A stretch of 64,000 nucleotides of DNA from an uncultured Verrucomicrobiae bacterium (GCA_963719495.1 CAVRCI010000008.1:64001-128000); one strand, 5' to 3'; positions 13,453-31,507 are shown, counted from the first letter of the stretch. The notes: generated by a model from the sequence alone, not told the origin. Program-made: numbers and translations.

Positions 13453-16400
13453 ATGGCGGAGCTTGAAGACGATGCGGACCGGTTTGCGATCATTGGGATC
13501 GGGTGTCGGTTGCCGCCGAGTGGGAATTCTCTCGCCGCGTTCTGGCGCTTTTTGATGAAGGGCGGGAACGCGCTGAAGCCGATCAAGTCGGACCGGTGGG
13601 ATTGGCGGCAGTATTGGGACGGGGATCCGGCGCGGCCCGGGAAGAGTTACGCGCCGAAGGCGGCCTGGCTGGATCAGGACATCAAGCAATTCGATCCGGG
13701 GGTATTCGGGATTTCGCCGCGGGAGGCAGCGTGCCTGGATCCGCAGCAGCGGTTGCTGCTGGAGTCGACGTGGGAGGCGTTCGAGGACGCGGGATTGCCG
13801 GTCGAGCGGATGGCGGGGTCGCGGACGGGGGTGTTCATCGGGGGATTTTGTCTCGACCACCTTTTGTCGCAGACGAAGGCGGCGAATCTGGCGCTGGTGG
13901 ACGCGCATTCGCCGGGTGGCGTGATGATGACGGTGCTGTCGAACCGGATCTCGCACGCGTTCGATCTGCGGGGGCCGAGTCTCACCCTGGACACGGCGTG
14001 TTCGTCGTCGTTGGTGGCGATTCATTACGCGTGTCAGAGCCTGCGGAGCGGCGAATCGGAGTTGGCGCTGGCGGGTGGGGTGAACGTGATGGGGCGGCCG
14101 GAATTCCCGGTGATCATGAGTAAGGGGCACTTCCTTTCCCACCACGGGGAGTGCCATGCCTTCGACGAATCGGCGGCGGGCTACGCGCGAGGCGAGGGGG
14201 CGGGGGTGTTTCTGATCAAGCCGTTGGCGAAGGCGCGGGCGGATGGTGATACGATTCACGCGGTGATCCGCGGGTCGGGGGTGAACTCCGACGGGCGGAC
14301 GGAGGGGCTTTCGCTGCCCAACGGCGACGCGCAGGGGCGGCTCATTCGGGAGGTTTACGAGCGGGCCGGGGTCGCGCCGAAGGACGTGGATTACGTCGAG
14401 GCGCACGGGACGGGGACGCAGGCGGGGGATCCGGCGGAGTTGGCAGCTCTGAACGCGAATTTTGGCACCGGGCGGGAAAGTCCGCTTTGGGTCGGGTCGG
14501 TGAAGACGAACGTGGGGCACCTCGAAGCGGCGGCGGGCGTGGCGGGGATGATGAAGGCGATCGGGGTGCTGAAATATCGGAAGATTCCGAAGAACCTTCA
14601 TTTCGAAAACCCGAATCCGAAGATCCCGTTCGACGATTACGCGCTGACGGTGGTCGCGGCGACGACGGACCTGCCGGGTGCGGACGAGAAGGCGACCTTG
14701 TTCGCGGGCGTGAACGGGTTTGGTTACGGGGGGACGAACGCGCACGTGTTGCTCGAATCGGCTCCGGCGGCGGTGGTGGCCGCGACGAATGGGGCGGCGG
14801 CGGAGGGCTTGCGGGTGGTGCCGTTCTCGGCGGCGGACGAGGGGGCGCTGCGGGATCTCGCGGGGAAGTTTGCGTTTTTGCTGGGCGGGGCGAAGGCGGG
14901 GTCGATGGACGATCTGGCTTACACGACGGCGTTTCGACGGAGCCATTTGCCGGTGCGGTGCGCGGCGGTTTGCGACGGCTTGGGGGCGTTGCGGGATCAG
15001 CTGATCGCGGCGTCGACCGGGCAGCCGGCGGACGGGCTGGTGATCGGATCGCGGGTGGCCGGGGCGGAGCGCGGGCTGGTTTTTGTTTTTACCGGGATGG
15101 GACCGCAGTGGTGGGCGATGGGGCAGGAGCTGATGCGGACGGAGCCGATCGTGGCGGCCACGGTCGACGAGGTGGACGCGGTGTTTCAGCCGCTCGCGGG
15201 GTGGTCGCTCGAGGCCGCGATGCTGGCGGGCGAGGCCGAGTCGCGGATGGCCCACACGGACCTGGCGCAGCCGGCGAATTTCGCGCTGCAGGTCGGGCTC
15301 TTTCGACTGTGGGAATCGCGGGGCATTCGGCCGGCGGCGGTGGTCGGTCACAGCGTCGGCGAGGTGTCGGCGGCTTACGTGGCGGGGGTTTACTCGATGG
15401 AGGAGGCCGTGCTGGTGAGCTATCACCGCAGTCGGCTGCAGCAGACGACGGCGGGGCTGGGGGCGATGCTGGCGGTCGGGTGTTCGGAGGACGAGGCGAA
15501 CAGCTGGATCGGGGATCGCGGCGGCGTTGCGGTGGCGGCGATCAATAGTTTTGGCGCGGTGACGCTGTCGGGGGATCGGGCGGAGTTGGAGACGATCGCG
15601 GCGGAGCTGGAAGCGGCGGGGATTTTCAACAAATTTTTACGCGTCGAGGTGGCGTATCACAGTCCGCAGATGGATCCGATCGAGGCGGAGCTGCTCGAGG
15701 TGCTCGCGCCGCTGAATCCGAAGCCGGCGACGCTGCCGCTCTATTCGACGGCGTATGGCGAGATCGTGGACGCGTCGCGGTGGGGCGCGGATTACTGGTG
15801 GCGGAACGTGCGGCACGCGGTGCGGTTCGCGGATGCGGCGAAGGGTTTGCTCGAAGCCGGGTTTGGGGCGTTTCTCGAGGTTGGGCCGCATCCGGTGCTC
15901 GGGAATGCGATCAAGGAATGCGCGGCGACGCTGGGTCGCGAGGCGACGGTGTTTTATTCGCTCAAACGCAAGGAGCACGAGGCGCGGCGGATGGCTCTTT
16001 CTCTGGCGGAGCTTTACGTGGCGGGGTTCGATCCCGACTGGAGCGCGGTCGCGCCGACGCACGGGCGGATGACGGCGGTGCCGACGTATCCTTGGAAACG
16101 GCAGACGCACTGGCTGGAGTCGGAGCGCTCGTTGCTGGAGCGGGTGGGTCGGAAGGGGCCGGTCTATCTGAATCGGCCGGTGCAGGGGAATCCGACGACG
16201 TGGGAGGTCGAAATCAACCGGAATTTCTTCCCGTTTCTCTTCGACCACGGCGTGCAGGATCAGACGGTTTTCGCGGGGATGGGATACGTCGAGGCGGCGC
16301 TGACGCTGGGCCGGGAGTGCCGGGGCGGCGAGGCGTTCATCCTGGAAAACGTGAGCTTCGAGCGCGTGCTGATCGTGGACAAGATGAAGATCCAGTGTCT

Positions 16401-19400
16401 GGTCAGTTCGTTCGACGCCGAGGGCGGGCGGTTTGCGATTTCCAGCCGGACGGACGGAGAAGCGGCGAGCATGGAGCTGCATTGCCGGGGGCGGATCCTG
16501 CCGCAAGCCGAGCCCATCGTGCCGCGGATCGACCTCGACAAATGGCGGGAGCGGTGCGGCGACGAGGTCGCGATTGCGACGCTTTACGAACATTTGGGCG
16601 GGCGGGGGCTGGAATACGGCGAGGCGTTTCGACCGGCGCTCGCGATGACGGTGGGGCCGGAGCGGTTCGTGATGAAGATCGACTCGGGCCGGGTCGCAAA
16701 GGAGACGGACCATTTGTTGCACCCGTCACTGTTCGACGCGGCCCTACAGGCGGTGCTTTACCGGGCGGGCGGAAAGCACCTTTTCGTGCCGTCGGGGTTC
16801 GAGCGGTTCGAGTATTTTGGGCGGCCGGGTGGCGACGTCTGCTTCGCCGTCGGGGAGCTGGTGGAAACGAGCGCGACGCGGATCGTGGCGCACGCGTGGC
16901 TGACCGACGAGGCCGGGAACGTCGTGGCACACGCGCACGGGATCGCGTTGCAGTCGATCGAGATGGGGGGCGCGGAGGCGGCGGGGGATCCGGTCTACGA
17001 GCTGGGGTGGAAAGTCGCGCCGCGCGATGCCGTGGAGGTGGGTCGGGGCGAGGGGATGGTGTTGGTCGCGGCGGTGGCGGGTGGTCTGATTGACGCGGTG
17101 GCGGAGCGGTTGCCGGAGGCGTGGGTTCGCGACGCCGGGTCGGTGGACGAGGCGTTGGCGGCGGGACGGAAGCGGTTCGTGGTTTTTGGCGGGAGCGACG
17201 AGACGGCGACGGGGCTGGCGGACGAGGCGGAGGCGGCGATCGAGTTGCTGCGGGCGCTCGCGGTTTCGGGTGTGGCTTGTGAGGTGACGTTCGCGACCGT
17301 GCGGGCGCGGGAGGTCGTCGATGGCGAGGGCGTTGCGAACCTGGGCGGGAGCGCGTTGGCGGCGCTGGGGATGGTGGCGGAGAACGAACACGCCGCGCTG
17401 ACGTGCCGTTCGGTCGATCTAGCGGACGCGGGGCCGGACGCGGCGGATTGTCTGGCGCGGGAGCTCGCGCTGGGTGGCGCGGACGTCGCTTATCGCGACG
17501 GGCAACGGTGGGAGTGCGCGCTGGGCGGGCGGCGATTCGAGGCGGCACCGGTGGCGCTGCGGTCGGTGAGTCTCGACGAGCCGGTGACGCTCACTTTCGA
17601 CGCGAAGGGGAAGTCGGGGTCGCTGGGATTCGAGTCGGTCGAGCGGCGGGAGCCGGGGGCGGGCGAACTGGAAATTCGAATCCAGCGGGCGGCGCTCAAT
17701 TACAAGGATCTGCTCAAGGTCGAAGGGAAGATCGATCCACTGGCGCTGGAGGGAACGTTCTGGGGGACGGGCGTGGGGATGGAGTGCGCGGGGGTCGTGA
17801 CGCGGGTGGGGGCGGAGAGCGCGTTTGCGGTGGGGGACCGCGTGCTCACGATTTTGCCGGGCGCGTTTCGGAGTTACGCCACGGTTCCGGCGACCTACGT
17901 GGTGCGGATTCCGGACGGGCTGGATTGCGATCTCGCGGGGGTATCGGTGGTTTACCTCACAGCTTACCGGGGGCTCGTGGACGTCGCGGGATTGGCCGCC
18001 GGGGAGCGGGTGCTCATTCATCACGGGACCGGCGGGCTGGGGCTGGCGGCGATCGGGATCGCGAAGTGGCGGGGCGCGGAGATTTTTGCGACGGCGGGCT
18101 CGGACGAGAAGCGGGCGATGCTGCGGGAACTCGGGGTGAAGCACGTGTATTCATCGCGGACGCTGGACTTCGGCGCGCGAATTCGCGCCGATACCGGCGG
18201 GGAGGGGGTCGACGTCGTGCTGAGCGCGCAGACGGGGCAGGCGATGCACGTGAGCCTCGGGTTGCTGCGGACGGGCGGGCGTTTTGTCGAGGTGGGCAAG
18301 AAGGACATCGCCGAGGACAACGGCCTGCCGATGCGGGCGTTCAATCGCAACCTGACGTTCGCGTCGGTGGACGTCGATCGGCTGTCGCTGGAGCGTCCGG
18401 ACTTGATGAGCGCGACGCTGCGGAAGGTGGTGGATCACTTTGCCGCCGGGGATTTTTCGCAGGGCTCGGTGACGACTTTTGCGGCGGCGGACGTGCGCGA
18501 CGCCTTCGAGTTGATCGCGCGCAGTCGGCACGTCGGAAAGGTGCTCGTCGATCTGGAAAACGGATCGGTCGAGGCGCGGGAATCGGCGGGCGAATCGCCG
18601 ATGATCCGGGCGGACGGGAGCTATCTCATCACCGGCGGAACGTCGGGATTCGGGCTGGCGAGGGCTCGGTGGATGGCGGCGCGAGGCGCGGGGCGGCTGG
18701 TGCTCGCAAGCCGTTCGGGGGCGTCGGCGGCGGGGATGGACGCGGTCGTGGCGGAGCTGGAGGCGGCGGGATCGGTGGTGGACGTCGTGTCGGTGGACGT
18801 GACGGATGCGGGCGCGGTGGCGGAGCTGGTCGCACGGGCCGGGGTGGACGGGATGCCGCTGCGTGGGGTGGTGCATGGCGCGATGGTGCTGGACGACGTG
18901 ATGCTGGCCGACGTGACGCCGGAGCGGTTCCGGCGGGTGTTCGCGCCGAAGGCGGGCGGGGCGGTCAACCTGGCGGCGGCGCTCGATGGGGCGGCGGACG
19001 GATTGGATTTCGTCGTCTTCGATTCGTCGGTCTCGGCGATCGTGGGGAATGCGGGGCAGACGAGTTACGTCGTGGCGAACGCGCTGCTCGACGCGTTGGC
19101 GCGGCGTTTGCGGGCGCGGGGCGTGCCGGCGGTTTCGATCAATTGGGGCGCGTTGGCCGAGTCGGGCGTGGTGGCGCGGGACGGGCGGCTGGGCGACGTG
19201 CTGGCGGCGGGCGGGATCACGGGATTGACCGACGCGGAGGCGTTCGACGCGATGGAGAAGGCGGCGCGGTCGGGGCGGGCGCAGGTGGGGGCCTTCAAGG
19301 TGGATTGGAAACGTTGGGCGGTGGCGAATTCGCGCCGGGCGGAGGATCCGCGTTTCCGGGCGTTGGTCCGGCAGGCGCGGGATGGCGAGGGGGGGGACGC

Positions 19401-19689
19401 GGCGTCGGCGATCCGGTTGTCGCTCGAGGACGCCGCACCGGAGGCACGGGTGCGGGCGCTCGAGGAACACATGCGGGAAGTGCTCGCGAACGTGCTCAAA
19501 ATGGCGAAGGACGCGGTGCCGGTGAACCGGAAGCTCAACGAGATCGGCGTCGATTCGTTGATGGTGCTCGAGCTGGGGCTGGGGATTCGCGAGCGAATTG
19601 GCGTGGAATTTTCGGCCATGGAGTTTCTAAAGGGACCGACGCTGAAGGAGCTTTCGACGTTGGCCGAGGAGCGGCTCTGGCGGAATTAA
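13453..19689 (+). CDS. Single-module reducing type I polyketide synthase KS-AT-DH-ER-KR-ACP, no thioesterase
   Basis: KS DTACSSS, HGTGT, GHLEAAAG; AT GHSVG and VAYHS; DH DHGVQDQTVFAG and HPSLFDAALQ; ER LIHHGTGGLG; KR ITGGTSGFG, VLDD, GQTSYVVAN; ACP IGVDSL. Confidence 0.95.
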   Translation: MAELEDDADRFAIIGIGCRLPPSGNSLAAFWRFLMKGGNALKPIKSDRWDWRQYWDGDPARPGKSYAPKAAWLDQDIKQFDPGVFGISPREAACLDPQQRLLLESTWEAFEDAGLPVERMAGSRTGVFIGGFCLDHLLSQTKAANLALVDAHSPGGVMMTVLSNRISHAFDLRGPSLTLDTACSSSLVAIHYACQSLRSGESELALAGGVNVMGRPEFPVIMSKGHFLSHHGECHAFDESAAGYARGEGAGVFLIKPLAKARADGDTIHAVIRGSGVNSDGRTEGLSLPNGDAQGRLIREVYERAGVAPKDVDYVEAHGTGTQAGDPAELAALNANFGTGRESPLWVGSVKTNVGHLEAAAGVAGMMKAIGVLKYRKIPKNLHFENPNPKIPFDDYALTVVAATTDLPGADEKATLFAGVNGFGYGGTNAHVLLESAPAAVVAATNGAAAEGLRVVPFSAADEGALRDLAGKFAFLLGGAKAGSMDDLAYTTAFRRSHLPVRCAAVCDGLGALRDQLIAASTGQPADGLVIGSRVAGAERGLVFVFTGMGPQWWAMGQELMRTEPIVAATVDEVDAVFQPLAGWSLEAAMLAGEAESRMAHTDLAQPANFALQVGLFRLWESRGIRPAAVVGHSVGEVSAAYVAGVYSMEEAVLVSYHRSRLQQTTAGLGAMLAVGCSEDEANSWIGDRGGVAVAAINSFGAVTLSGDRAELETIAAELEAAGIFNKFLRVEVAYHSPQMDPIEAELLEVLAPLNPKPATLPLYSTAYGEIVDASRWGADYWWRNVRHAVRFADAAKGLLEAGFGAFLEVGPHPVLGNAIKECAATLGREATVFYSLKRKEHEARRMALSLAELYVAGFDPDWSAVAPTHGRMTAVPTYPWKRQTHWLESERSLLERVGRKGPVYLNRPVQGNPTTWEVEINRNFFPFLFDHGVQDQTVFAGMGYVEAALTLGRECRGGEAFILENVSFERVLIVDKMKIQCLVSSFDAEGGRFAISSRTDGEAASMELHCRGRILPQAEPIVPRIDLDKWRERCGDEVAIATLYEHLGGRGLEYGEAFRPALAMTVGPERFVMKIDSGRVAKETDHLLHPSLFDAALQAVLYRAGGKHLFVPSGFERFEYFGRPGGDVCFAVGELVETSATRIVAHAWLTDEAGNVVAHAHGIALQSIEMGGAEAAGDPVYELGWKVAPRDAVEVGRGEGMVLVAAVAGGLIDAVAERLPEAWVRDAGSVDEALAAGRKRFVVFGGSDETATGLADEAEAAIELLRALAVSGVACEVTFATVRAREVVDGEGVANLGGSALAALGMVAENEHAALTCRSVDLADAGPDAADCLARELALGGADVAYRDGQRWECALGGRRFEAAPVALRSVSLDEPVTLTFDAKGKSGSLGFESVERREPGAGELEIRIQRAALNYKDLLKVEGKIDPLALEGTFWGTGVGMECAGVVTRVGAESAFAVGDRVLTILPGAFRSYATVPATYVVRIPDGLDCDLAGVSVVYLTAYRGLVDVAGLAAGERVLIHHGTGGLGLAAIGIAKWRGAEIFATAGSDEKRAMLRELGVKHVYSSRTLDFGARIRADTGGEGVDVVLSAQTGQAMHVSLGLLRTGGRFVEVGKKDIAEDNGLPMRAFNRNLTFASVDVDRLSLERPDLMSATLRKVVDHFAAGDFSQGSVTTFAAADVRDAFELIARSRHVGKVLVDLENGSVEARESAGESPMIRADGSYLITGGTSGFGLARARWMAARGAGRLVLASRSGASAAGMDAVVAELEAAGSVVDVVSVDVTDAGAVAELVARAGVDGMPLRGVVHGAMVLDDVMLADVTPERFRRVFAPKAGGAVNLAAALDGAADGLDFVVFDSSVSAIVGNAGQTSYVVANALLDALARRLRARGVPAVSINWGALAESGVVARDGRLGDVLAAGGITGLTDAEAFDAMEKAARSGRAQVGAFKVDWKRWAVANSRRAEDPRFRALVRQARDGEGGDAASAIRLSLEDAAPEARVRALEEHMREVLANVLKMAKDAVPVNRKLNEIGVDSLMVLELGLGIRERIGVEFSAMEFLKGPTLKELSTLAEERLWRN

Positions 19690-19707
19690 TTTCAAACAAC
19701 ACGACTC

Positions 19708-21105
19708 ATGGAAAAATCTCTCCCCGGCATCGACAGTCTCGTCGCTTTCACCAACACGGCGGGCCTCAATGGGCGCGGCACGTTGGTTCACATCTCGCGG
19801 TCCGTCGCCGTCTTCGAGGTCTACAACCCGTATTCGATCATTCAGCTCTCGGAGGTTCTCCAGGAGCTGTCCGTGATGCGCGGCGAGCGGGTGATTTATC
19901 GTGGGCGAGGGGTGGTGACGAGCATCGTGGCGACGGGCTTGATGGTGATCGTGTCGGTGACGTTGATTGATTCGTGGAATTCCGTCGGGCACCTCGAGCC
20001 GGGTGGGGCGCTGCAGGATGCGGTCACGGCGTTCATCAACGACTGGGAGGAGGGGCAGGATCTGACGCCCGAGTATCAGCTGGCGGTGAACCAAATGGCG
20101 GATTTCCTTTCCGATTCGAGCCGATGGATCGAGGAAGCGGAGACGGCGATCGTCGGGACGGAAAAGATCGACCCCGACCGGGCGGCACGGTTCCGCGAGT
20201 CGCTGCAGGAGCCGGTGGCGGCGAAGTTGCAGGGATTGATTCAGGCCTTTGAAAACGAAGCCCGCAACGTGCCGGACGAAGAGTCGGCGCTCTACAAGGC
20301 GTTTTCGCGGCGGGAGATTCATCCCTTCATGCTCTGCGCGCCCTTTGCGTGGCGGTCGTTCTACAAGCCGCTCGGATACGCGGGCGACTACGAGATGGTG
20401 AACATGATGCTCCAGGAGTCGCCCGACGTCGGGAACAACACCTACGCGCGCATCTTCCACGATCTCACGACCAGCGTCGCGGCGTGCCTCGCGCACCGCA
20501 ATCGCATCACGATCCTCGAGCGACTGCTCGCCGAGGAGGCCGAGCGGGTGACCGAGGAAGAGCGGATCTTCACCGTGCTGACGGTGGCCTGCGGACCGGC
20601 GGTCGAGATCCAGCGTTACATCCGGACGCAGGATCTGGCGAACCAGAGCGCGCTGCACCTGATGGATTTCAACGAAGAAACGCTCGCCTACGTGCAGGAG
20701 CGCGTGGAGGCCGCGATGGACGCGTCGGGGCGGAAGCCGACGGTGAAATTCATCCGCAAGTCCATTGATGACCTGTTGAGGAACGTCCACATCGAGAACG
20801 AGGAATTCCTGCCGACCTACGACATGATTTATTGCGCGGGGCTGTTCGATTATTTCCCCGACAACGTCTGTCGCAACCTGCTCGAGCTCTACTACCAGTG
20901 GGTGCGGCCGGGTGGGTTGCTCGCGGCGACGAACGTGCATCCGAACAACCCGGAGCAATTTCTGATGGAGCATTTGCTCGAGTGGTATCTCGTCTACCGG
21001 GACGAGGCGCACCTCGAGTCGCTCGCGCCGAAGGGCTGCTCGCCGGAAGTCTTCGCCGATGACACCGGGGTGAACGTTTTCCTGACCGTGCGAAAGCCCG
21101 AATGA
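19708..21105 (+). CDS. phcB: PhcB-like class I SAM-dependent methyltransferase (3-hydroxy fatty acid methyl ester signal synthase family)
   Basis: 465 aa; 'KPLGYAGDYEMVNMML', SAM motif 'VLTVACGPAVEI', 'YDMIYCAGLFDYF', 'MEHLLEWYLVYRD'; followed by membrane kinase and receiver genes as in phcBSRQ. Confidence 0.8.
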   Translation: MEKSLPGIDSLVAFTNTAGLNGRGTLVHISRSVAVFEVYNPYSIIQLSEVLQELSVMRGERVIYRGRGVVTSIVATGLMVIVSVTLIDSWNSVGHLEPGGALQDAVTAFINDWEEGQDLTPEYQLAVNQMADFLSDSSRWIEEAETAIVGTEKIDPDRAARFRESLQEPVAAKLQGLIQAFENEARNVPDEESALYKAFSRREIHPFMLCAPFAWRSFYKPLGYAGDYEMVNMMLQESPDVGNNTYARIFHDLTTSVAACLAHRNRITILERLLAEEAERVTEEERIFTVLTVACGPAVEIQRYIRTQDLANQSALHLMDFNEETLAYVQERVEAAMDASGRKPTVKFIRKSIDDLLRNVHIENEEFLPTYDMIYCAGLFDYFPDNVCRNLLELYYQWVRPGGLLAATNVHPNNPEQFLMEHLLEWYLVYRDEAHLESLAPKGCSPEVFADDTGVNVFLTVRKPE

Positions 21106-23726
21106 CGAGCCCCCATCCAGTCGAAAGCGATCCGGTGTTGGCCGCCGCATTCCGGGCGTCCAACGGTCGGCGGCTCGTGCGCGGTCTGCTCGTTGCGAAC
21201 GGGCTGTCGGTGATCGGGGTGCCGGGTGGGTTCGTGCTGGATTACTTTTTGTATCCGGCGAATTTTTTGCAGTTTCTCGCGATCCGCTTCGGGGTGGCCG
21301 CCCTGCTGATCGTGATCATGGGCCTGCTCGTCCGGGAGCGGAAGGCGCCGCGAGTCGGTCTCGTCAATGCGCTCGGAATTCTGTCGGCGTTGATCATCAA
21401 TTTTGCGTTTTGCCTGATGATCGCGACGACCGACGGGGCGGGGTCGCCCTACGTCGTTGGGGTGATTCTGATTATCACGTGCTGGGCGGTCATGCTGCCT
21501 TGGACGGCGACGGAGACGGCCGTGGTATGCGTGGTGTCTTACGTCGGCTACGCGGTCGCGTGCTTCGCGAACGCGGGATCGCTGCAGGCCGAAAATTTTC
21601 CGCTCTTCGCGTTCAATTCGTTCTTCGTTTTGATCACGACGGCGGTTTGCGTCGCGATCTCGATTTTTCAGGCGCGGTCGCGGTTCGATGATTTTCGACT
21701 GCGGCACGAATTGGACGAGCGCAACCGCGAGCTGCGGGATCTGGACCGGCTGAAAACGCAATTCTTCTCGAACGTGAGCCACGAACTCCGGACGCCGTTG
21801 ACGATGATCCTGAGCCCCGTGGCGGATTTGCTGCGGCGGACGGAGGCCCTCGAGCCGGCGGTCCACGGGACGATGATCGTCGTGCAGCGGAACACGCTGA
21901 GGTTGTTGAAATTGATCAACGATCTGCTCGATCTCACGCGGATGGATCAAGGCGTCGACGTGCTGCGGCGGAAATCGGTGGAGGTCGACGAGTTCGCGCG
22001 AGGAATCGTCGAGTCGATGCGGCACCTCGGTCTGTCGAAGCGGTTGCGGATGAAGATCGAGGCGGGGGACGCGGGCTTGCGCGGCGATTTCGACCCGGCG
22101 CGGATGGAGAAAGTGCTGCTCAATCTGCTGACGAACGCGATGAAATACACGCCGGCCGGCGGCACGATCACGGTGCGCTGGGGGGCGGGCGAGAGGGCGG
22201 CGGGCGGCGTGTGGTTCGAGGTCGCGGATACCGGCGTCGGGATTCCCGAGGAGGATCTGGCCCGGATCTTCGACCGCTTCCACCAAGTGAAGAGCAATGC
22301 GGCGAATCAGAATCAGGGCGTCGGCATCGGGCTGGCCCTGGCGAAGGAACTCGTCGAGCAGCACGGCGGGACGGTGGACGTGAAGAGCCTCGTGGGCGAG
22401 GGGACGGTTTTCCGGGCGAATCTGCCCGCCGTCGTGGAGGATTTGGACGTCGCCGAGACCGAGCGGATGGCGTTCGACGAAATCGAGGAGCCGTTCGAGA
22501 AGGCGTTTCGCTCGGCGGACCGGAGCTGGACCTACGACGACTCGGCGGACGTGGATTTGCCGGAGGTGGGATCGGGTTCGCAGACCGTGCTGGTGGCGGA
22601 CGACGAGCACGACATGCGGCGCTACGTCGTGTCCCTGCTCGCGGAGGACTATCGCGTGATCCAGACGCAGCACGGCGGAAACGTCGAGGAATTGGTGGCG
22701 AAGCACCGGCCCGATCTCGTGGTGCTGGATTGGATGATGCCCGGGAAGGACGGTTTGCAACTCTGCCAGGCCCTGCGGTCGCGGGAGGAGAACAAGGATT
22801 TGAAAATCGTGCTGCTCACCGCGCGGGCCGACGAGGATTCGAAAATCGACGCGCTGCAGGCCGGGGCGGACGATTTTCTCACCAAGCCGTTCAGCAGCGT
22901 CGAGGTGCGGACGCGGGTGCGGAATCTCCTGCGGGCCGGGCAGATGCAACGCGACCTGCGGGCGAGCAACGACGACCTCACGGCCACGCTGACCAAATTG
23001 CGCGACACCGAGACGATGCTCATCCAGAGCGAAAAGATGAACGCGATCGGCTCGCTTTCCGCCGGGTTGCTGCACGAGATCAACAACCCGCTCAACTACA
23101 CGCTGACGGCGATCAGCATCACCCACCAGTTCCGCGACACGCTGTCGGAGGATCTGCGGGAGATCCTCGACGACGTCGAGGAGGGGATGACGCGGATCCG
23201 TGATGTCGTGACCGATCTGAAAACCTTCGCCTACCCCGAAAAGGCGGGCGTCGAGGCCGACGTGGCGGTTTCGGAATTGCTGCGCAGCGCGCTCAAGATC
23301 ACGGCCGGGGAGCTGGACGGCGTGCGGGTCGACGTCGATCTACCGGAGGATTTCGAGGTGCGCGGACAGAAGACCCAGCTCATGCACATCTTCATCAACC
23401 TGCTCAACAACGCGAGCCGCGCGATGCGGGAGGCCAACCTGGCCGGTCCGCGGGTGGTGACGGTCCGCGGGAGGACTCTGGGCGACTTGGCGGTCGTGGA
23501 GTTGCGCGACAGCGGGCCGGGGATCCCGGCGGAGATCATCAACCGCGTCTTCGATCCCTTTTTCACGACCCGGGCGGTCGGCTCGGGCATGGGGATGGGC
23601 CTGAGCATCTGCCACACGATTTTGGATTCGCACCGGGGCACGATCCGGGTGGAGAATCACCCGGACGGCGGGGCGCATTTCACCATCGAACTCCCACTCG
23701 CCGAGTCGGCGCTACTCTCATGCTAA
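21102..23726 (+). CDS. PhcS-like membrane hybrid histidine kinase (multi-TM, HisKA-HATPase-REC-HisKA-HATPase)
   Basis: About six N-terminal TM helices; H-box SHELRTPL; GVGIGLA; receiver VLDWMMPG...KPF; second H-box LHEINNPL and GSGMGMGLS; ATGA overlap with phcB-like gene. Confidence 0.85.
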   Translation: MTSPHPVESDPVLAAAFRASNGRRLVRGLLVANGLSVIGVPGGFVLDYFLYPANFLQFLAIRFGVAALLIVIMGLLVRERKAPRVGLVNALGILSALIINFAFCLMIATTDGAGSPYVVGVILIITCWAVMLPWTATETAVVCVVSYVGYAVACFANAGSLQAENFPLFAFNSFFVLITTAVCVAISIFQARSRFDDFRLRHELDERNRELRDLDRLKTQFFSNVSHELRTPLTMILSPVADLLRRTEALEPAVHGTMIVVQRNTLRLLKLINDLLDLTRMDQGVDVLRRKSVEVDEFARGIVESMRHLGLSKRLRMKIEAGDAGLRGDFDPARMEKVLLNLLTNAMKYTPAGGTITVRWGAGERAAGGVWFEVADTGVGIPEEDLARIFDRFHQVKSNAANQNQGVGIGLALAKELVEQHGGTVDVKSLVGEGTVFRANLPAVVEDLDVAETERMAFDEIEEPFEKAFRSADRSWTYDDSADVDLPEVGSGSQTVLVADDEHDMRRYVVSLLAEDYRVIQTQHGGNVEELVAKHRPDLVVLDWMMPGKDGLQLCQALRSREENKDLKIVLLTARADEDSKIDALQAGADDFLTKPFSSVEVRTRVRNLLRAGQMQRDLRASNDDLTATLTKLRDTETMLIQSEKMNAIGSLSAGLLHEINNPLNYTLTAISITHQFRDTLSEDLREILDDVEEGMTRIRDVVTDLKTFAYPEKAGVEADVAVSELLRSALKITAGELDGVRVDVDLPEDFEVRGQKTQLMHIFINLLNNASRAMREANLAGPRVVTVRGRTLGDLAVVELRDSGPGIPAEIINRVFDPFFTTRAVGSGMGMGLSICHTILDSHRGTIRVENHPDGGAHFTIELPLAESALLSC

Positions 23727-24823
23727 CTAATCCATCCAGCCGCCAATGCGGCATCCTCTACATCGACGACGAAGAAAAAGCGTTGAAATATTTCCGGCTC
23801 GCGTTCGCGCAGAAGTTCGAGATTTTCACCGCGCCATCCGGTCCCGAAGGTCTCGAGATCCTGCGGCGCGAATCCGCCAAGATCGCGATCGTGATTTCGG
23901 ATCAGCGCATGCCCGAGATGCTCGGCGCGGAGATCCTCGAGATCGTCCGCAACGAATACCCGCACGTCGTGCGCATTCTCACCACGGCTTATTCCGACCT
24001 CGAGAGTGCGATCCAGGCGGTGAACCGCGGCCACATCTACCAATACGTGGTCAAGCCCTGGGAAGTGCCGGAGCTGGGCATGGTGCTGCAGCGTGCGTCG
24101 GATTACCACCAGGTGCTGAGTGAGCGCGACGAGTTGCTGGCCGTGAAGTTGAGCACGCTGCAACGCGTGCTCTGCAGCGACCGGGTGAAGTGGCTGCTCC
24201 TGGCTTCGCGGGCGTGGGCCGAGGAGGAGCGAATCGCGCTGCGGCGGACGGTGGTCTCCTTGATCGAGGTGTTGCCGTCGCAGTTGAATCCGGCTCAGAC
24301 CAGGAAAGTGGCCGGAGTGAGCGCGCGTGACTTCGACCTCGAGCGGTTGATCTCCGGCGAATATTCGAACGCGACGATGTGCCTCGACGCGATCGACGCC
24401 CTGCGCGGTGCGTCGGGTTCGTGGAGCGAGCGGGCGACGACCGAGGTGTCCGGCCTGGCCGCCGCGCTGGCGGCCGGGTTGGAAGTGGCGGAGGATTCGA
24501 TCGAGACCGAGGCAAGTGGGTTGGCGGCGAGTGTCGCGCTCGATGGCGCGCCGATCGAGGCCTCGGAATTGGCGAGAGCGCTCGGCGGCGTGTTGGCGGA
24601 GAAGGAGTCCGGCGCGATCGCGGTGAATCTGCTGCGGACGCTGTTTGCGCTGGCGATGGCTGGTGGGAAGCTGGTCGTCACCGGTGGCGGGATGGAGTTT
24701 CGTTTTCTCGAAGGTGACGCCGAAGCGACCTCGGCGGCGGACGTGATCGCCGCGTTGCACGGACAATTCTCCCGCGCCGACCTGGCTGGTCTGCGACCCA
24801 CGGCAACCCCCGCAAAATCATGA
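23720..24823 (+). CDS. PhcQ-like response regulator (REC plus non-DNA-binding C-terminal domain)
   Basis: 'ILYIDDEEKALKYF...SDQRMP...VRILTTAYSD...YVVKPW' followed by 'ERDELLAVKLSTLQR'; no HTH recognisable. Confidence 0.75.
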   Translation: MLTNPSSRQCGILYIDDEEKALKYFRLAFAQKFEIFTAPSGPEGLEILRRESAKIAIVISDQRMPEMLGAEILEIVRNEYPHVVRILTTAYSDLESAIQAVNRGHIYQYVVKPWEVPELGMVLQRASDYHQVLSERDELLAVKLSTLQRVLCSDRVKWLLLASRAWAEEERIALRRTVVSLIEVLPSQLNPAQTRKVAGVSARDFDLERLISGEYSNATMCLDAIDALRGASGSWSERATTEVSGLAAALAAGLEVAEDSIETEASGLAASVALDGAPIEASELARALGGVLAEKESGAIAVNLLRTLFALAMAGGKLVVTGGGMEFRFLEGDAEATSAADVIAALHGQFSRADLAGLRPTATPAKS

Positions 24824-26022
24824 CAAAATTCAAAAAGAAAGGCGTTCTGATGGTCGACGACGAGGAGATCGCGTTGAAGTATTTCTCGCGGGCCTTCGAC
24901 GACCGGTTCGCGATCCATTCCGTTTTGTCGACGAAGGAAGCGATGGAGTTCCTCGAGGAGCGTGGCGACGAAATCGGGGTTCTGGTGACGGATCAACGGA
25001 TGCCGGACGCGAACGGGCTGGATCTGCTGTGCCGGGTGCGGGAGGAATTCCCGACGGTCGTGCGCATTCTGACGACGGCTTACACGGAGCAGCAGGTGCT
25101 CGTCGACGCGATCAACTCCGGGGCGGTGTATTCGTTCGTGTCAAAACCGTGGGATCTCAACGAGTTGGAGTCAGTCCTGACCAACGCGCTGGAGGATCAC
25201 GAGCGGCAGGCGGCGGAGGCCTCGCTGGTGGCGGCGAAATTCGATGAATTGCGCGCCCAGATTCTGGAGGACCGCGTCTTCGACGTCGGGATGGTATCGG
25301 CCAAGATCGGGCATTACATTCACAACGCTCTGTGCCCGCTCACGTTCATGATCGAGCAACTCCTCGAGCACAGCCCGGCTACGCCCGATCTGCCGCTCGA
25401 GTTCGTTCGCAGCACGCGGGACCACCTTTACGACGTCGCCCAGACGCTCAAGGACCTCGAGCAGGTGAGCCAGCCGACGGCCGAAGCGGACCTCGAATGG
25501 CTGAATCTCGACCACCTGGCGGTGCGGGCCCTCGCGGAGACCGAAGTGATCCGAAATCAGAAGAAGCTCCACATCGAAAAGAAGGTCGATCCGGATACGC
25601 CCCTCATCCGAGGATCACTCGATCAGATCGCCAAGCTCTTCCGCTTCATGATCGCGGAGGAGATCGTCTCGCTGCCCGAGAGCAGCACGGTGCACCTCGG
25701 GATCGCTCCCAACCTCGTGGACGGCGAGGTCCTCGGGGCGCAGATCAGTTTCGACGATTTCGTGCCGGTGGCGCGGCACACGTGCGCGGAGAGTCTGCTC
25801 CATCCCTTCAATCTGCGGGGCTCGAATCCGCGGGAGTTCGGGGTTTTTCTGGTGTCGTGCTACTTCATCGTCCGCCACCACGGGGGGTCGCTGACGGCGC
25901 GGATCAACGAGTGGGGTGGGCTTTCCCTCTCGCTATTCCTCCCCAGCGTGGACGACAGTCCGGCGACGGAGGATTTCCTGCTGACCAAAAGCCTCGGGAA
26001 TCCCTCGAACCGAAAGCGCTGA
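24820..26022 (+). CDS. PhcR-like response regulator (REC plus degenerate histidine kinase domain)
   Basis: REC 'MVDDEEIALKYF...TDQRMP...SKPW'; H-box-like 'GHYIHNALCP'; C-terminal 'FGVFLVSCYFIVRHHGGSL' HATPase-like without canonical N/G boxes. Confidence 0.72.
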   Translation: MTKFKKKGVLMVDDEEIALKYFSRAFDDRFAIHSVLSTKEAMEFLEERGDEIGVLVTDQRMPDANGLDLLCRVREEFPTVVRILTTAYTEQQVLVDAINSGAVYSFVSKPWDLNELESVLTNALEDHERQAAEASLVAAKFDELRAQILEDRVFDVGMVSAKIGHYIHNALCPLTFMIEQLLEHSPATPDLPLEFVRSTRDHLYDVAQTLKDLEQVSQPTAEADLEWLNLDHLAVRALAETEVIRNQKKLHIEKKVDPDTPLIRGSLDQIAKLFRFMIAEEIVSLPESSTVHLGIAPNLVDGEVLGAQISFDDFVPVARHTCAESLLHPFNLRGSNPREFGVFLVSCYFIVRHHGGSLTARINEWGGLSLSLFLPSVDDSPATEDFLLTKSLGNPSNRKR

Positions 26023-26026
26023 ATCG

Positions 26027-27127
26027 ATGATTGCGGGTTCCCCTTTCAAAAAAATTCTCGTCGTGGACGATGAGCCCCTCGTTCGCCAGACGCTGAGCCT
26101 GTGTCTGCGGGACGAATACGACGTGACGGCGGTGGCGTCGGGCGAAGAGGCTCTGGCGGCATCGGCGGCGGATGCCTACCCGGTCGTGCTGTTGGATCTG
26201 TGCATGGAGGGGCTGTCGGGAATCGAGACGCTCAAGCGTCTGAAGGAAATGCGCGAGGTCCAGAAAGTGATCATCCTCACCGCGCACGAGAGCACGGAGA
26301 GCGCCATCGCGGCGGTGAATCACGGTGCTTTCAACTACCTGCTCAAGCCCTTCGAGCGAAAGCACCTCAAGGACGTGATCTCCCGGGGCTTCGCGGATTA
26401 CGAGCAGGAGAATCTCCGGACGCAGGAGATGCAATCGCGGCTGATGAGCGTGCACGACACGTTTTTTTCCATGCTCTGCCACGAGTTCAACACTCCGCTC
26501 AACGTGGTGCTGGGATTCTCGGAGCTGCTTTCGCACGACACCCGGGACGCCGAGCGGTCGGGATGGATCAAGGAAATCCAAAATTCCGGGCGTCAGCTCC
26601 ACGATATCCTCATGGAAATCGTCGATTACGTGAGCGCTTCCCACCTGGCGGAAGCCGGGGTGCAGACCGAATTGCCGCTGGAGGCTCTTTCCGAGACGCT
26701 GATCGCCTTCTCGAAGGAGCGGGGTCTCGTCCTGGAGTTTCACGATATGCGCCCGACCGGACAAAAGTATCGCGGGCCGGAGCGATCGATCCTGATGGTG
26801 GCGCGCAAGCTTCTCCGCATGGCGGCGCGTGGATCCAGCTTGGCGCGGTTGTCGGTGGATGTCGTCGAGAACGGCGATGTGATGGATTTGAGCCTGGTTG
26901 TCGAGCGGGTGAACGATGGGCGCGACGTCGGCCCGCGCGCCCGGCTGGACTCGTTGTTCGACCCCTACGGGGCGATCCGTGAGGGGGCGGGGCAGAGCGG
27001 GTTGGGGCTGGAACTGGCGACCTGCCGGAAGATCGCCGAATACGCGAAAGGCACCGTCGACTGCCAGCTGGCGGGCAGCGGAGAGATGCAGTTCGTCGCG
27101 CGGATTCCAATCGAACGGGTGGGTTAG
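26027..27127 (+). CDS. Response regulator REC-HisKA with degenerate HATPase
   Basis: REC 'VVDDEP...LLDLCM...LKPF'; H-box 'CHEFNTPLN'; 'GLGLELATC' G2-like box, N-box not evident. Confidence 0.8.
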   Translation: MIAGSPFKKILVVDDEPLVRQTLSLCLRDEYDVTAVASGEEALAASAADAYPVVLLDLCMEGLSGIETLKRLKEMREVQKVIILTAHESTESAIAAVNHGAFNYLLKPFERKHLKDVISRGFADYEQENLRTQEMQSRLMSVHDTFFSMLCHEFNTPLNVVLGFSELLSHDTRDAERSGWIKEIQNSGRQLHDILMEIVDYVSASHLAEAGVQTELPLEALSETLIAFSKERGLVLEFHDMRPTGQKYRGPERSILMVARKLLRMAARGSSLARLSVDVVENGDVMDLSLVVERVNDGRDVGPRARLDSLFDPYGAIREGAGQSGLGLELATCRKIAEYAKGTVDCQLAGSGEMQFVARIPIERVG

Positions 27128-27136
27128 CGGAGGCCG

Positions 27137-28390
27137 GTGAGAGGCTTGTTTCGTTGTTTCGTCGGCGCCGCGGCTGGGCTGTTGCTGGCGGTGGGTTGCT
27201 CGCGGGTGGCGGAGCCGCCGATCCGGGTCGGGGTCTTGCATTCCGAGACCGGGACGATGGCGATGAGCGAGCGAGCCGTGATCAACGCGACTCTGCTCGC
27301 GATTGAAGAAATCAACGAGGCCGGCGGCTTGCTGGGACGGCGGATCGAGCCGGTGATCACGGACGGGGCCTCCGATCCGGCGAGGTTCGCGGTGGCGGCG
27401 GAGCGGCTGCTGGCGGGCGAGGGGGTGAGCGTGATCTTCGGTTGCTGGACTTCGGCGAGTCGGAAGTCCGTGGTGCCGGTCGTCGAGGCGGCGGGCGGGC
27501 TGCTGTTTTATCCGCTGCAATACGAGGGGATCGAGCAGTCGCCGAACGTCGTCTACACGGGGGCGACGCCGAATCAGCAGGTCGTCCCGGCGGTGAGCTA
27601 CGCGTTGCGGGAATTTGGGCCGCGGGTCTTTCTGGTCGGCTCGGATTACGTCTTTCCCCGGATGACGAATCTGATCATTCGCGATCAGGTGAAGGCCCTG
27701 GGCGGACGCGTGGTGGGTGAGGAGTATCTCCCGCTGGGCGGAACGGACGTGGGCGGAATCGTCGACGCCATCGTCGCGGCGCGGCCCGACGTGATCCTCA
27801 ACACGATCAACGGCGACTCCAACGTCCCGTTCTTCGCCGCGTTGCGCGCGATGGGGATCACGCCGGAGAGCGTCCCGACGATGTCGTTCAGCATCGGCGA
27901 GACCGAGCTGGCCCAGATGGAGCCGGGGACGATGGCGGGCGACTACGCGGCGTGGAATTATTTTCAGAGTCTGGACTCGGACCTCAACCGGACGTTCGTC
28001 GACGCTTACCGGGAGAGATTCGGGCGCGACGCCGTGACGTCGGATCCGATGGAGGCGGCTTACGCCGCGGTGAATCTGTGGGCGCGGGCGGTTCGCGACG
28101 CGAGATCGGTGGATCCCGCGGCGGTGCGGGCGGCGATCGGGGGTCAGGGATTTCACTCGCCGGAGGGGTTGGTCTACGTGGACGAGGAGACGCAGCACAC
28201 CTGGAAATCCGCTCGCGTGGGCCGGGTGCGGGCCGATGGGCAGTTCGACGTCGTCTGGGAATCCGACAAGCCCGTGCGGCCGATGCCGTTTCCGATCTTC
28301 CGGACGCGCGCGGAGTGGGAGCGGGCGCTGGAGGATTTGCGAATGGAATGGGGCGGGGCCTGGTCGAACCCGGAGGCGGTGGCTCCATGA
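27137..28390 (+). CDS. urtA: UrtA/AmiC-family urea/short-chain amide-binding lipoprotein
   Basis: Lipobox LAVGC; '[15 protein letters not shown]', '[12 protein letters not shown]', 'FYPLQYEG', 'GSDYVFPR', 'NTINGDSN', 'SDPMEAAY'. Confidence 0.9.
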
Positions 28391-31134
28391 TCCGGCAGCG
28401 GCGCATTTCCACCGAGTTGATCGTGTGGTTTCTGTTGCTGGCGGTGGTCCCGCTGGGTTTCGGCACGTGGCTCAACTACTCGGCGTCGCGGCAGTTGCTG
28501 AGCGAGGTGATCGAAACGAACCTCGCTTCGATCGGTCAGCGGCAGGGTGGGCGCATCGAGGAGTATCTGCACGCGAAGGAGGAGAGCCTGACAGCGCTGG
28601 CCGACAGCGGGACTCCGGCGGAGGCGTTGAGACTCTTCGCCGAGGCGGTCGAGGCCTCGGGGGGGGCGACGAATTTCGCCTACCGGGTGGCGGTCGCGCG
28701 GCACAGCCGGTTGCTGGAGCGTTTTCGGATCGCGATGAATCTGGAGCAGGTCTATCTGGTGAATCCGAGCGGTCGGGTGGTGCTCACGGCCGGGGGGACG
28801 GGTGAACCGCTCGGCAACTTGCTGGAGCCGCCGTTGGCGGCAAGCGGACTGGGCGAAGCGGTCGAGACGAGCTTGATGACTCTGGGGACCGTGCAATCGC
28901 GGCTCGCTGTCTTCGAGCCGGATGGGCGCCCGGCGACGTTCTTTGCGACTCCGGTTTTTGCCGACGGGATTTTCATGGGGATTCTGGCCGTCCGGCTCGA
29001 TCTGGACGAGATCGACGAGGTGGTGACCGATCCGACCGGACTGGGCGAGACCGGCGAGATGGTGGTGGCGTCGATGGACGGTGATGCGGCGGTGCTGATG
29101 ACGCCGACCCGTCACGACCCGGACGCGGCGTTTGATCGTCGAATCGAATCGGGAGCCGAGGCGGGCAATGCGGTCGTCGCGGGCGCGCTTGGCCACCGCG
29201 GCGAAGGATTGGTGACCGACTACCGAGGGGTGGAGGTGCTGGCCGTGTGGCAATACCTGCCAGCGTTGCAGTGGGGGGTCGTGGTGAAGATCGACGCCGA
29301 CGAGGCGTTCGCTCCGGTGGCGACTCTGGCCCGGCTCGCGGTGGCGGTGGCGGTCGTCGCGGTGATCCTGGCCGCGCTGGCCGCGTGGTTCGTGGCGCGC
29401 TCGTTTTCGCAGCCGATCGAGGCGCTCACGCGGGCCGTCTCGGCGGTCTCGCGGGGACAACTCGACCGCTCGGTGAGGATCTCGACGCAAAACGAAATCG
29501 GACAGCTGGGCCGGGATTTCAACCGGATGACCTCGCAGCTGCGCGACATGGTGGAGACGATGGAGGAGCGGGTTCGCCAACGGACGGCGGAGCTCGCGGA
29601 CGCCCGCGACCAGGCCGAGGAGGCCAATCGGACCAAGAGCGCCTTCCTCGCGAACATGAGCCACGAATTGCGGACGCCGATGAACGCGATCATCGGCTAC
29701 AGCGAGATGCTCATCGAGGAGGCCGAGGATCTCGGGCAGGAGGATTTTGTGCCGGATCTGCGGAAGATTCAGGGTGCCGGGAAACACCTGCTGGAGCTGA
29801 TCAACGACGTGCTCGACCTCTCCAAGATCGAAGCGGGCAAGATGACGCTTTACCTCGAGGACTTCGAGATCGCGCCCATGCTGAGTGAGGTGATTTCGAC
29901 CGTGGAGACGCTGGTCGCGAAGAACGGGAACGCGCTCGAGTTGCGGATCGGCGAAGGTCTCGGGTCCATGCGGGCGGACCTCACCAAAGTGCGGCAGACC
30001 CTCTTCAACCTGCTGAGCAACGCGTCGAAATTCACCGAAAACGGGACAATCACGCTGACCGCCGAGCGCGGCGAGGGCGATCGGATCCGGCTGGGGGTCG
30101 CGGATACGGGTATCGGGATGACGCCCGGGCAGGTCGATAAGCTCTTCCGATCCTTCACCCAGGCCGACGAATCGACGACGCGCAAATACGGTGGAACCGG
30201 GCTCGGGCTCGTGATCAGCCGGGAGTTCTGCCGGATGATGGGTGGTGACATCACGGTGACGAGCGCGGCCGGCGAAGGGTCGACGTTTCTGGTCGACCTT
30301 CCGGCGGAGGTGATCGAGCTCACGGAGGACGCGGGCGAAACGTTGTCTGCGGGGTTGGACGCCGTGGTGCCGAACCCGGCGGGGCGGACGGTGTTGGTGA
30401 TCGACGACGACGGCGACACCCGGGAGTTGTATCGGAGGACGCTGGAAAAAAGCGGTTATCGCGTGCTGGTCGCGGCGGGTGGCGAGGCGGGGTTGGAGCT
30501 GGCGCGGTCCGGTCGGCCGGACGCCATCACGCTCGATGTGATGATGCCCGGGATGGACGGTTGGTCGGTGCTGTCGGCGCTGCGGTCCGATCCGGCCACG
30601 GCGGGGATCCCGGTGCTGATGGCGACGATGCTGCGGGATCAGCAGTTGGGATTTTCGCTCGGCGCGACCGATTATCTAACCAAACCGGTCGACGCCGGAC
30701 GTCTGCGCGACGTGATCGGACGCTACGTGGATCGCGGAATCGACGCGGCGTTGATCGTCGAGGACGACGCGGATAGTCGGGAAATGCTCCGGCGAATGCT
30801 CGAGAAGGCCGGGCTGGTCGTGCACGAAGCGGCTGATGGGCGGGAGGGGCTGGACGTGGCGCGGCGGGAGTCGCCGGGCGTGATTTTGTTGGATTTGATG
30901 ATGCCGGTGATGGATGGATTCGAGTTTCTGGCGTGCCTTCGGCGCGATGCGCGGTTAAATCAAATCCCGGTCGTGGTGGTGACAGCGAAGAACCTGTCGG
31001 CAACCGATCGCGAGAACCTGAACGGCGGCGTGCAATCGGTGATCCAGAAAGACGGGATGGATCGCGATCAGCTGCTCCGCGAAGTGTGTAAACTGCTGGC
31101 CCAGACCTCCGACCCGAACGCACCGAATGGCTAA
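28387..31134 (+). CDS. Hybrid sensor histidine kinase TM-dCache-TM-HAMP-HisKA-HATPase-REC-REC
   Basis: Probable start MIRQRRIS (ATGA overlap with urtA stop); periplasmic 'GLGETGE...[11 protein letters not shown]' Cache region; HAMP; '[16 protein letters not shown]'; 'YGGTGLGL'; two receiver domains. Confidence 0.9.
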
Positions 31135-31507
31135 AATTCTCCTCGTCGAAGACAACGAAATGAATCGCGACATGCTGAGCCGCCGGCTCGCGCGCCGCGA
31201 CCACGAGGTGCTCATCGCCGTCGATGGTCAGGAGGGCGTCGACCGGGCGACCGCCGAGAAGCCGGACATCATCCTGATGGACATGAGTCTGCCGGTGATC
31301 GACGGCTGGGAGGCGACGCGGCGCTTGAAGGCCGACGAGGCGACCCGGGGCATCCCGGTGATCGCGCTCACGGCGCACGCGATGGCGGGGGACCGGGAGA
31401 AAACGATGGAAGCCGGGTGCGACGACTACGACACCAAGCCGATCGATCTGCCGCGGCTGCTCGAGAAAATTGCGACGCAACTGGCGAGGGTCGGCGGCGG
31501 GACATGA
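31127..31507 (+). CDS. Single-domain response regulator (DivK/CheY-like)
   Basis: '[19 protein letters not shown]...[15 protein letters not shown]...ALTAHAM...DTKPID'. Confidence 0.92.

Follow-up and report, generated by a model that had tools for sequence, protein, structure and literature searches.

A conserved variant of the phc signalling cassette with a dedicated type I polyketide synthase in Verrucomicrobiota

We analysed a 64,000-nucleotide stretch of DNA from an uncultured Verrucomicrobiae bacterium (GCA_963719495.1, CAVRCI010000008.1:64001-128000), hereafter the window, and describe within it a cassette that places a type I polyketide synthase (PKS) directly ahead of homologs of the phc signalling genes of Ralstonia. 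A list of open reading frames (ORFs) combined with Pfam searches identified six tightly packed genes on the plus strand between positions 13453 and 27127:

13453..19689, + strand: type I PKS with the domains KS-AT-DH-ER-KR-ACP, 2078 amino acids (aa), first gene of the cassette (Pfam)
19708..21105, + strand: PhcB-family S-adenosylmethionine (SAM)-dependent methyltransferase, 465 aa (identity to PhcB of Ralstonia sp. R-29; Pfam)
21102..23726, + strand: membrane sensor kinase, 874 aa (two HisKA, two HATPase and one REC domain in Pfam; scan for transmembrane (TM) helices)
23720..24823, + strand: PhcQ-like receiver protein, 367 aa (Pfam REC)
24820..26022, + strand: receiver protein with a kinase-like tail, 400 aa (Pfam REC, NCBIfam EspC)
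26027..27127, + strand: PhcR-like receiver-kinase, REC-HisKA-HATPase, 366 aa, last gene of the cassette (Pfam)

The stop codon of the PKS gene ends at 19689 and the methyltransferase gene begins with an ATG at 19708, leaving a gap of 18 nt; the methyltransferase and kinase genes overlap by 4 nt, the next two junctions are overlaps as well, of 7 and 4 nt, and 4 nt separate the last two genes. The original prediction had let the unit end at 26022. That boundary had to be moved to 27127, since the sixth gene (26027-27127) follows after 4 nt and is conserved alongside the other five in 17 of the 19 extended loci. Its description of a single-module reducing PKS ending at the ACP, with a PhcB-like methyltransferase 18 bp further on, was borne out, Pfam detecting no domain after the ACP at residues 2007-2069. 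The overlapping multi-TM kinase and receivers that it had placed next are also present, with three receiver-containing genes downstream of the kinase rather than two. The kinase does have six predicted TM helices but is a compound protein (TM-HisKA-HATPase-REC-HisKA-HATPase) rather than a simple kinase, and the two receivers, said to be devoid of DNA-binding domains, carry only REC in Pfam, although the 400-aa one has a kinase-like tail recognised by NCBIfam as EspC. A promoter scan returned one promoter-like site against 1.9 expected, a terminator scan found none convincing inside the operon and an Rfam scan of positions 8000-34000 gave no match.

By sequence comparison the methyltransferase is a full-length homolog of PhcB. 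It shares 41.4% identity with PhcB of Ralstonia sp. R-29 over 456 of its 465 aa (E 1e-119), and in reciprocal searches each of the two proteins matched nothing in the other's genome but its counterpart (E about 1e-110), as expected from the predicted PhcB-like character of the 465-aa protein. The comparator is Ralstonia sp. R-29 and not R. solanacearum, none of the latter being among the best 80 loci kept from a scan of species genomes that found a relative of the methyltransferase in at least 588 of them; identity to the 5 Ralstonia and 11 Cupriavidus loci within those 80 is 41-43%. Of 8000 candidates scored in a word-indexed search, 4639 proved to be relatives, and an exhaustive HMMER search yielded 388 clusters at the 50% identity level (E<=1e-30), most of them full-length. 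The closest named relatives belong to Terrimicrobiaceae, Chthoniobacterales and other Verrucomicrobiota, and several relatives carry the JGI name 3-hydroxypalmitic acid methyl ester biosynthesis protein.

Pfam places a class I SAM methyltransferase domain at residues 290-405, and ten columns are invariant in an alignment of 66 methyltransferase sequences. The AlphaFold 2 (AF2) model, with a predicted local distance difference test (pLDDT) score of 91, consists of a beta-barrel (residues 10-86) known from this model alone, a helical region (100-283) and a Rossmann methyltransferase domain (288-465), and no hydrolase fold was seen in it. Foldseek with this model gave an uncharacterised protein as the top match, the stated functions among the matches listed (to rank 50) being all methyltransferase, and a profile search of solved structures with the family returned weak matches to methyltransferase domains only. 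Residues 1-283 gave nothing relevant in Pfam at E<=5. Membership of the N-terminal barrel in the PilZ sequence family was considered and not supported: Pfam returned no PilZ match at E<=0.001 with the complete protein, nor at E<=5 with residues 1-283.

The adjoining kinase begins with a membrane region:

21183..21659, + strand: membrane sensor region, six TM helices at residues 28-186 with short loops between them (hydropathy scan)

The TM scan left no extracytoplasmic domain in this sensor. Kinase residues 614-868 share 43% identity with the kinase core of R-29 PhcS, the H-box LSAGLLHEINNP being present in both; residues 9-442 match PhcS at 26.6% over 463 aa, and residues 495-865 match PhcR at 25.9%. 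The H-box of the second kinase core reads LSAGLLHEINNPLN, against LSAGLLHEINNPVN in PhcS, and that of the first reads SHELRTPL, like AHELNTPL of PhcR and CHEFNTPL of the 366-aa protein of the window. Judged by these H-boxes, the membrane sensor is joined to the other kinase core than in Ralstonia, with the PhcS-type core placed behind the internal receiver. Full-length alignment of the 870-aa fused kinase (35-44%) was obtained in 11 of the best 80 loci, and in every verrucomicrobial or planctomycete locus examined the methyltransferase is followed by a match to the first 420-510 residues of this kinase. Locus L121 of one congener, whose genome is about 79% complete, has a kinase ORF of only 634 aa and a PKS match that begins at residue 632; these short forms may be due to frameshifts or assembly errors.

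Over 159 aa the 367-aa receiver shares 41% identity with PhcQ of R-29, and it is 30-32% identical, over about 350 aa, to ORFs in the PhcQ position of Cupriavidus numazuensis and four Paraburkholderia loci. Its AF2 model has a pLDDT of 85.5, the listed Foldseek matches rest on the receiver domain and its tail found no usable match in Protein Atlas. The C-terminal parts of both the 367-aa and the 400-aa receivers gave no relevant Pfam match at E<=5. In the 400-aa protein the match to NCBIfam EspC spans residues 142-383; an HE-type H-box was not found in its tail, the only HE dipeptide lying ahead of it at residue 127. From end to end, this protein can be aligned (27-31%) with the one receiver found in a group of related cassettes that have a fused kinase and no PKS. 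The 366-aa protein has the architecture of PhcR, with the H-box HEFNTPL where PhcR has HELNTPL, and its similarity to PhcR is weak (30% over 188 aa, E 1.6e-14), amounting to likeness rather than orthology. Pfam detected no DNA-binding domain in the 367-, 400- or 366-aa proteins, and PhcR and PhcQ are likewise without one in the available text on the Ralstonia system (PMC8578825).

To follow the association of PKS and phcB we surveyed related genomes for the methyltransferase and its upstream gene. Among 301 genomes of the window's own order 32 have a methyltransferase match, including the window's genome; in the 22 others with 66-91% identity the C-terminus of a PKS lies directly upstream in all 22 loci, and the 9 with 36-39% identity have it in none of 7 loci, two of these genomes giving no locus. 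In a sample of 401 genomes of the phylum there are 15 matches, again including the window's genome: 5 at 58-62% identity, from the same class but other orders, all have the PKS directly upstream (5/5 loci), and 9 at 34-41% do not (0/9). Overall, at methyltransferase identities of 57% or more the PKS is directly upstream in 27/27 genomes besides the window's own, with PKS identity falling as low as 44-49% in the linked loci. As the arrangement recurs in 27 of 27 related genomes it is not a product of chance, and the conserved linkage that the original prediction called for was found in both samples (22/22 and 5/5 loci). Outside this group no PKS was found beside the methyltransferase in the best 80 species-genome loci, mostly from Proteobacteria (0/80 at E<=1e-10), in the planctomycete sample (0/9 loci; 9 of 301 genomes matched, at 42-48%) or in the phylum of locus L053 (0/13 loci; 13 of 301 genomes matched, at 26-46%, one of them full-length). 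Nor was such a PKS found in the Ralstonia sp. R-29 genome.

For 16 genomes of the window's order we compared 20-kb stretches, adding three stretches from other orders. All 16 own-order stretches contain the methyltransferase, the kinase and the 367-aa receiver, 15 the 400-aa receiver and 14 the 366-aa gene. A full-length PKS at 48-82% identity is present in 14/16, being partial in L121 and cut by the contig end in L122, and in all three stretches from other orders. The six genes occur together in 14/16 own-order loci and in the three stretches from other orders, the latter at 36-62% identity. In a sister family, locus L131 has neither the 400-aa receiver nor the 366-aa receiver-kinase and locus L132 has no 366-aa receiver-kinase; these losses indicate that the downstream part of the cassette can be lost. 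A tree of 123 methyltransferases puts all 28 PKS-linked sequences on one side of a single branch with a Shimodaira-Hasegawa-like approximate likelihood ratio test (SH-aLRT) value of 100, requiring one change of state, so that the PKS-phcB linkage is of single origin. A long branch meets the PKS-linked clade, leaving its sister group uncertain. The cassette extends to cultured species: the methyltransferase of L139 has an exact protein match in Coraliomargarita algicola, where all six genes recur, and its 90% identity cluster has members from two Thalassobacterium species. That of L124 has an exact match, covering the methyltransferase only, in Terrimicrobium sacchariphilum.

The PKS itself was divided into the following domains:

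13480..14757, + strand: KS domain, residues 10-435 (Pfam PF00109, PF02801)
15079..16032, + strand: AT domain, residues 543-860, motifs GHSVGE and VAYHS (Pfam PF00698)
16192..16968, + strand: DH domain, residues 914-1172 (Pfam PF21089, PF14765)
17656..18549, + strand: ER domain, residues 1402-1699 (Pfam PF08240, PF00107)
18616..19158, + strand: KR domain, residues 1722-1902, LDD motif (B-type) (Pfam PF08659)
19471..19659, + strand: ACP, residues 2007-2069, GVDSL attachment site, the last domain (Pfam PF00550)

The protein ends 9 residues past the ACP and has neither a loading nor a release domain. Motifs were compared between the window PKS and 14 full-length orthologs (n = 15). The KS motifs DTACSSS and HGTGT and the AT motifs GHSVGE and VAYHS are invariant in all 15, and the KS motif NVGH was seen in the window PKS only. 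In an alignment the corresponding AT positions read GHSQGE and YASHS in DEBS and Lsd14, and GHSQGE and TAGHS in the tylactone AT; the methylmalonyl-type motifs of DEBS and Lsd14 (GHSQGE, YASHS) are not present in the window AT. A branched hydrophobic residue together with an aromatic residue marks malonyl specificity, so the extender unit is probably malonyl and the chains made are probably unbranched. The DH retains its catalytic His and Asp in an atypical context. The usual His motif is HxxxGxxxxP; in the window DH the Gly and Pro of this motif are replaced by other residues, giving HGVQDQTVFAG, and the forms D-H-x-V-x-[DN]-Q-x-V-F-A-G and DAA(L/I)(Q/R) occur in 15/15 orthologs. This motif may represent a functional variant of the dehydratase. 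At the KR motif, 14 proteins read LDD and one reads LED, the catalytic Ser, Tyr and Asn positions of the KR are retained in all 15, and GVDSL is invariant in the 15 orthologs and in 22/22 aligned ACPs. The ER nucleotide motif GG(L/V)G is retained in 14/15 and degenerate in L129. In this congener PKS (L129:2894-8962) ER identity to the window drops to 37% in one comparison and 31% in another. The remainder of its PKS and cassette is intact, and this species may be able to dispense with the ER.

Taken together the PKS looks like a complete, fully reducing module of the fatty acid synthase (FAS) type that has no loader and no release domain. Its best match among solved structures is mycocerosic acid synthase (MAS; 9d2z_A, E 3.6e-281, best-scoring stretch residues 10-1201), with which it shares the domain order KS-AT-DH-ER-KR-ACP, a similar length (2124 aa in MAS, 2078 in the window) and the absence of a thioesterase. 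MAS acts iteratively, extends fatty-acyl starters and is off-loaded by a separate enzyme. The window AT differs from MAS-like PKSs in being probably of the malonyl type, by the rule just given, and in the absence of methylmalonyl-type motifs, pointing to unbranched chains; unlike MAS, the window PKS has no PapA5-type acyltransferase nearby and stands among signalling genes rather than genes of lipid export. It is the sole type I PKS found in its own genome, four other matches being open frames of 360-585 aa that align to the KS or the AT part alone. The same genome contains one PF01648 phosphopantetheinyl transferase gene, which could supply the cofactor of the ACP.

Within the genus, the parts of the cassette diverge at different rates. 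The membrane sensor is the most divergent of the four segments of the kinase, with 40-69% identity to orthologs against 56-91% for the cytoplasmic parts. In two congeners compared with the window, the first kinase core is 70-71% identical and the internal receiver 79-84%, and the membrane sensor is 41-46% identical; in the same two, the DH is at 46-49% and the N-terminal part of the methyltransferase at 67-73%. This faster divergence of synthase parts and membrane sensor fits a matched pair of signal and receptor. An exchange of the block of PKS, methyltransferase and sensor between lineages was also considered, a quick free tree of synthase plus sensor, in which two rows had <25% of columns filled, having split the genus. 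It found no support, as the approximately unbiased (AU) test did not reject monophyly of the genus (p 0.96) and the constrained tree was the better one; more rapid divergence is accordingly the simpler explanation.

The PhcB enzyme of Ralstonia produces either methyl 3-hydroxymyristate or methyl 3-hydroxypalmitate, the signal that PhcS detects (PMC8578825). The parts of that system described there correspond to those of the window: a PhcB-family methyltransferase is likewise followed by a multi-TM kinase with the same kinase core and H-box, and the sensor likewise by a PhcQ-like receiver and a PhcR-like REC-kinase (PMC8578825). Unlike the window, with its 2078-aa PKS before phcB, the Ralstonia-type loci have no PKS (none of the best 80, including those of Ralstonia and Cupriavidus); PhcS is a TM-kinase of 447 aa with a single core, whereas the window sensor is a TM-kinase-REC-kinase of 874 aa; the window has an additional receiver with a kinase-like tail; and its host belongs to another phylum, Verrucomicrobiota. 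Just upstream of phcB in Ralstonia sp. R-29 we observed an ORF of 345 aa (L030:8291-9328) that has no counterpart in the window cassette; phcX, of the LqsR family, has been placed just upstream of phcB (PMC10653808).

The PKS-less cassettes with a fused kinase, found in Planctomycetota, other Verrucomicrobiota and several Proteobacteria, consist of a methyltransferase, a kinase of two histidine kinase modules flanking a receiver and one receiver protein of about 400-420 aa. They share with the window the methyltransferase family (34-48% identity), the 870-aa kinase (35-44%, full length) and the type of the 400-aa receiver, and differ from it in having no PKS, no PhcQ-like receiver and no PhcR-like receiver-kinase. 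By description, the window cassette also resembles the Cqs/Lqs alpha-hydroxyketone systems of Vibrio and Legionella, in which a lipophilic, fatty-acid-derived signal is paired with a six-TM histidine kinase that has no large periplasmic domain, and the synthase gene adjoins the sensor gene. The synthases are unrelated, that of Cqs/Lqs being a pyridoxal phosphate-dependent acyl-CoA transferase, and neither a methyl ester nor a PKS is involved there.

On these comparisons the six-gene operon at 13453-27127 would, with fair probability, make and sense a lipid methyl-ester signal. Probably drawing on malonyl units, the MAS-like PKS would assemble or lengthen an unbranched acyl chain tethered to its own ACP; the chain would be released from the ACP by a step outside what the cassette explains; and the PhcB-family methyltransferase would convert the acid into its methyl ester with SAM. 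Being lipophilic, the ester could partition into the membrane and be detected by the six-helix sensor of the 874-aa kinase, the signal then being relayed via the internal receiver and the PhcS-type core to the PhcQ-like receiver, the kinase-tailed receiver and the PhcR-like receiver-kinase. Going beyond the homologies of the parts, the gene order, the catalytic motifs and the single-origin linkage of PKS and phcB, we infer that the methyltransferase acts on the product of the PKS, that a methyl ester results, and that this compound exits the cell and is sensed by the kinase. A PKS-derived methyl-ester autoinducer is what the original prediction had proposed; the PhcB homology, the linkage and the PhcS-, PhcR- and PhcQ-like parts uphold the proposal in part; the sensor is no plain PhcS, and the receiver-containing genes downstream number three, not the two described.

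Several observations weigh against this interpretation. As all the reducing domains look active, the product need not be a 3-hydroxy acid, which a fully reducing MAS-like PKS does not guarantee; unless the last cycle stops early it may be a saturated ester, and the degenerate ER motif of L129 means that the chemistry may differ between species. Neither a thioesterase nor another release enzyme was found in the conserved cassette (16 own-order stretches) and the methyltransferase model contains no hydrolase-like domain, so that release from the ACP is left unexplained. PhcB function in general does not need a PKS, because the Ralstonia-type systems work with none beside it (0/80 loci). The sensor architecture differs from that of PhcS, and the conserved cassette contains no LysR regulator, a PhcA-type output regulator not having been sought beyond it.

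A bolder form of the same interpretation, which we put forward tentatively, is that the clade has a new class of autoinducer whose chain comes from a dedicated PKS, that PKS, methyltransferase and sensor co-diversify as species-specific pherotypes, and that the PhcB-type enzyme takes its substrate directly off the ACP and is thus part of the release.

It is also conceivable, if rather unlikely, that the joint product of the PKS and the methyltransferase is a methyl-esterified lipid other than an autoinducer, such as an envelope or storage lipid or an antagonistic volatile, with the kinase and receivers regulating its production or reading some other membrane cue. MAS, the closest solved-structure match of the PKS, is an enzyme of cell-envelope lipids, a sensor that has no extracytoplasmic domain could read the state of the membrane, and the tie of this clade to cell density is a predicted one. 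However, every part other than the PKS is homologous to a system of signal synthesis and sensing, as described in the available text of PMC8578825, and the pair of methyltransferase and sensor is kept without a PKS across many phyla, which is a better fit for a synthase and its receptor. The joint divergence of the sensor membrane domain and the synthase likewise speaks for a signal.

Less probable still is that the PKS is an output cargo that is merely co-regulated with the signalling genes, the methyltransferase using ordinary intermediates of fatty acid synthesis as is assumed for Ralstonia. PhcB homologs that presumably still work are found with no PKS beside them in the 80 best loci, in 16 distant verrucomicrobial loci and in 9 planctomycete loci, and a cassette that has no release enzyme would suit such a role. 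This reading must however accommodate a PKS that lies upstream of the methyltransferase, at a distance of 18 nt in the window, in an order that is fixed in 27/27 genomes while PKS identity falls to 44%. The PKS-linked methyltransferases moreover form a distinct, long-branched clade, as expected if the substrate had changed. An accidental adjacency or assembly artefact can practically be discarded, the same order and spacing being found in 27/27 independent assemblies, including contigs of 3.76 Mb and 5.38 Mb.

The genes surrounding the cassette show no comparable association with it. None of the 16 own-order stretches contains the upstream neighbours of the window cassette, which are an SbtA-like transporter and an NHL-repeat protein. 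Downstream, the binding protein and dCache hybrid kinase that adjoin the cassette do so in 2/16, both from the same genus, and are followed in the window by two more genes:

27137-28390: Peripla_BP_5 binding protein
to 31134: dCache-HAMP hybrid kinase with two receivers
31417-32994: REC-SpoIIE phosphatase
32991-33422: HATPase_c_2 anti-sigma-kinase-like protein

These four genes (27137-33422) appear to form a partner-switching module separate from the cassette. An AcrB-family resistance-nodulation-division (RND) transporter of 1248 aa lies 5 kb upstream on the minus strand (4603-8349) and is not kept beside the cassette in relatives. Nearly all 2-kb bins of the window have a positive GC skew, which reaches +0.26 to +0.35 over long stretches that include the PKS gene, and the second half of the window has genes on both strands.

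In the available text of a survey confined to Pseudomonadota, phc is called restricted to Betaproteobacteria (PMC10653808), and it has been treated as a peculiarity of Ralstonia and Cupriavidus in what is available of that survey and of PMC8578825. Its core genes are now found in Verrucomicrobiota. Our full-text literature searches, whose coverage excludes subscription journals, found no description of a phc-type cassette fed by a PKS, so the claim that a polyketide-derived system of this kind had not been described holds for the literature searched. Among the papers listed, those linking PhcB with a PKS deal with the Ralstonia lipopeptides ralsolamycin and ralstonins. The searches likewise found nothing relevant on PhcB in Verrucomicrobia or under the stem Opitut-, and no printed description of the PKS-less cassettes with a fused kinase.

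From its sequence and conservation the cassette is a real, conserved variant of phc signalling in a new phylum with a dedicated synthase, and its proposed function is plausible. The source of the PhcB substrate in Ralstonia is not settled in the available text of PMC8578825 and PMC10653808, and the window locus offers an approach to it. If the PKS does supply the acyl chain, this would be the first autoinducer known to us to come from a dedicated type I PKS and would show how a synthase that has no thioesterase can be unloaded. The occurrence of the methyltransferase in cultured species makes a lipid methyl-ester signal testable in cultured relatives. For the host, a soil-type verrucomicrobium, the cassette suggests a lipid methyl-ester signal that would be new to print.

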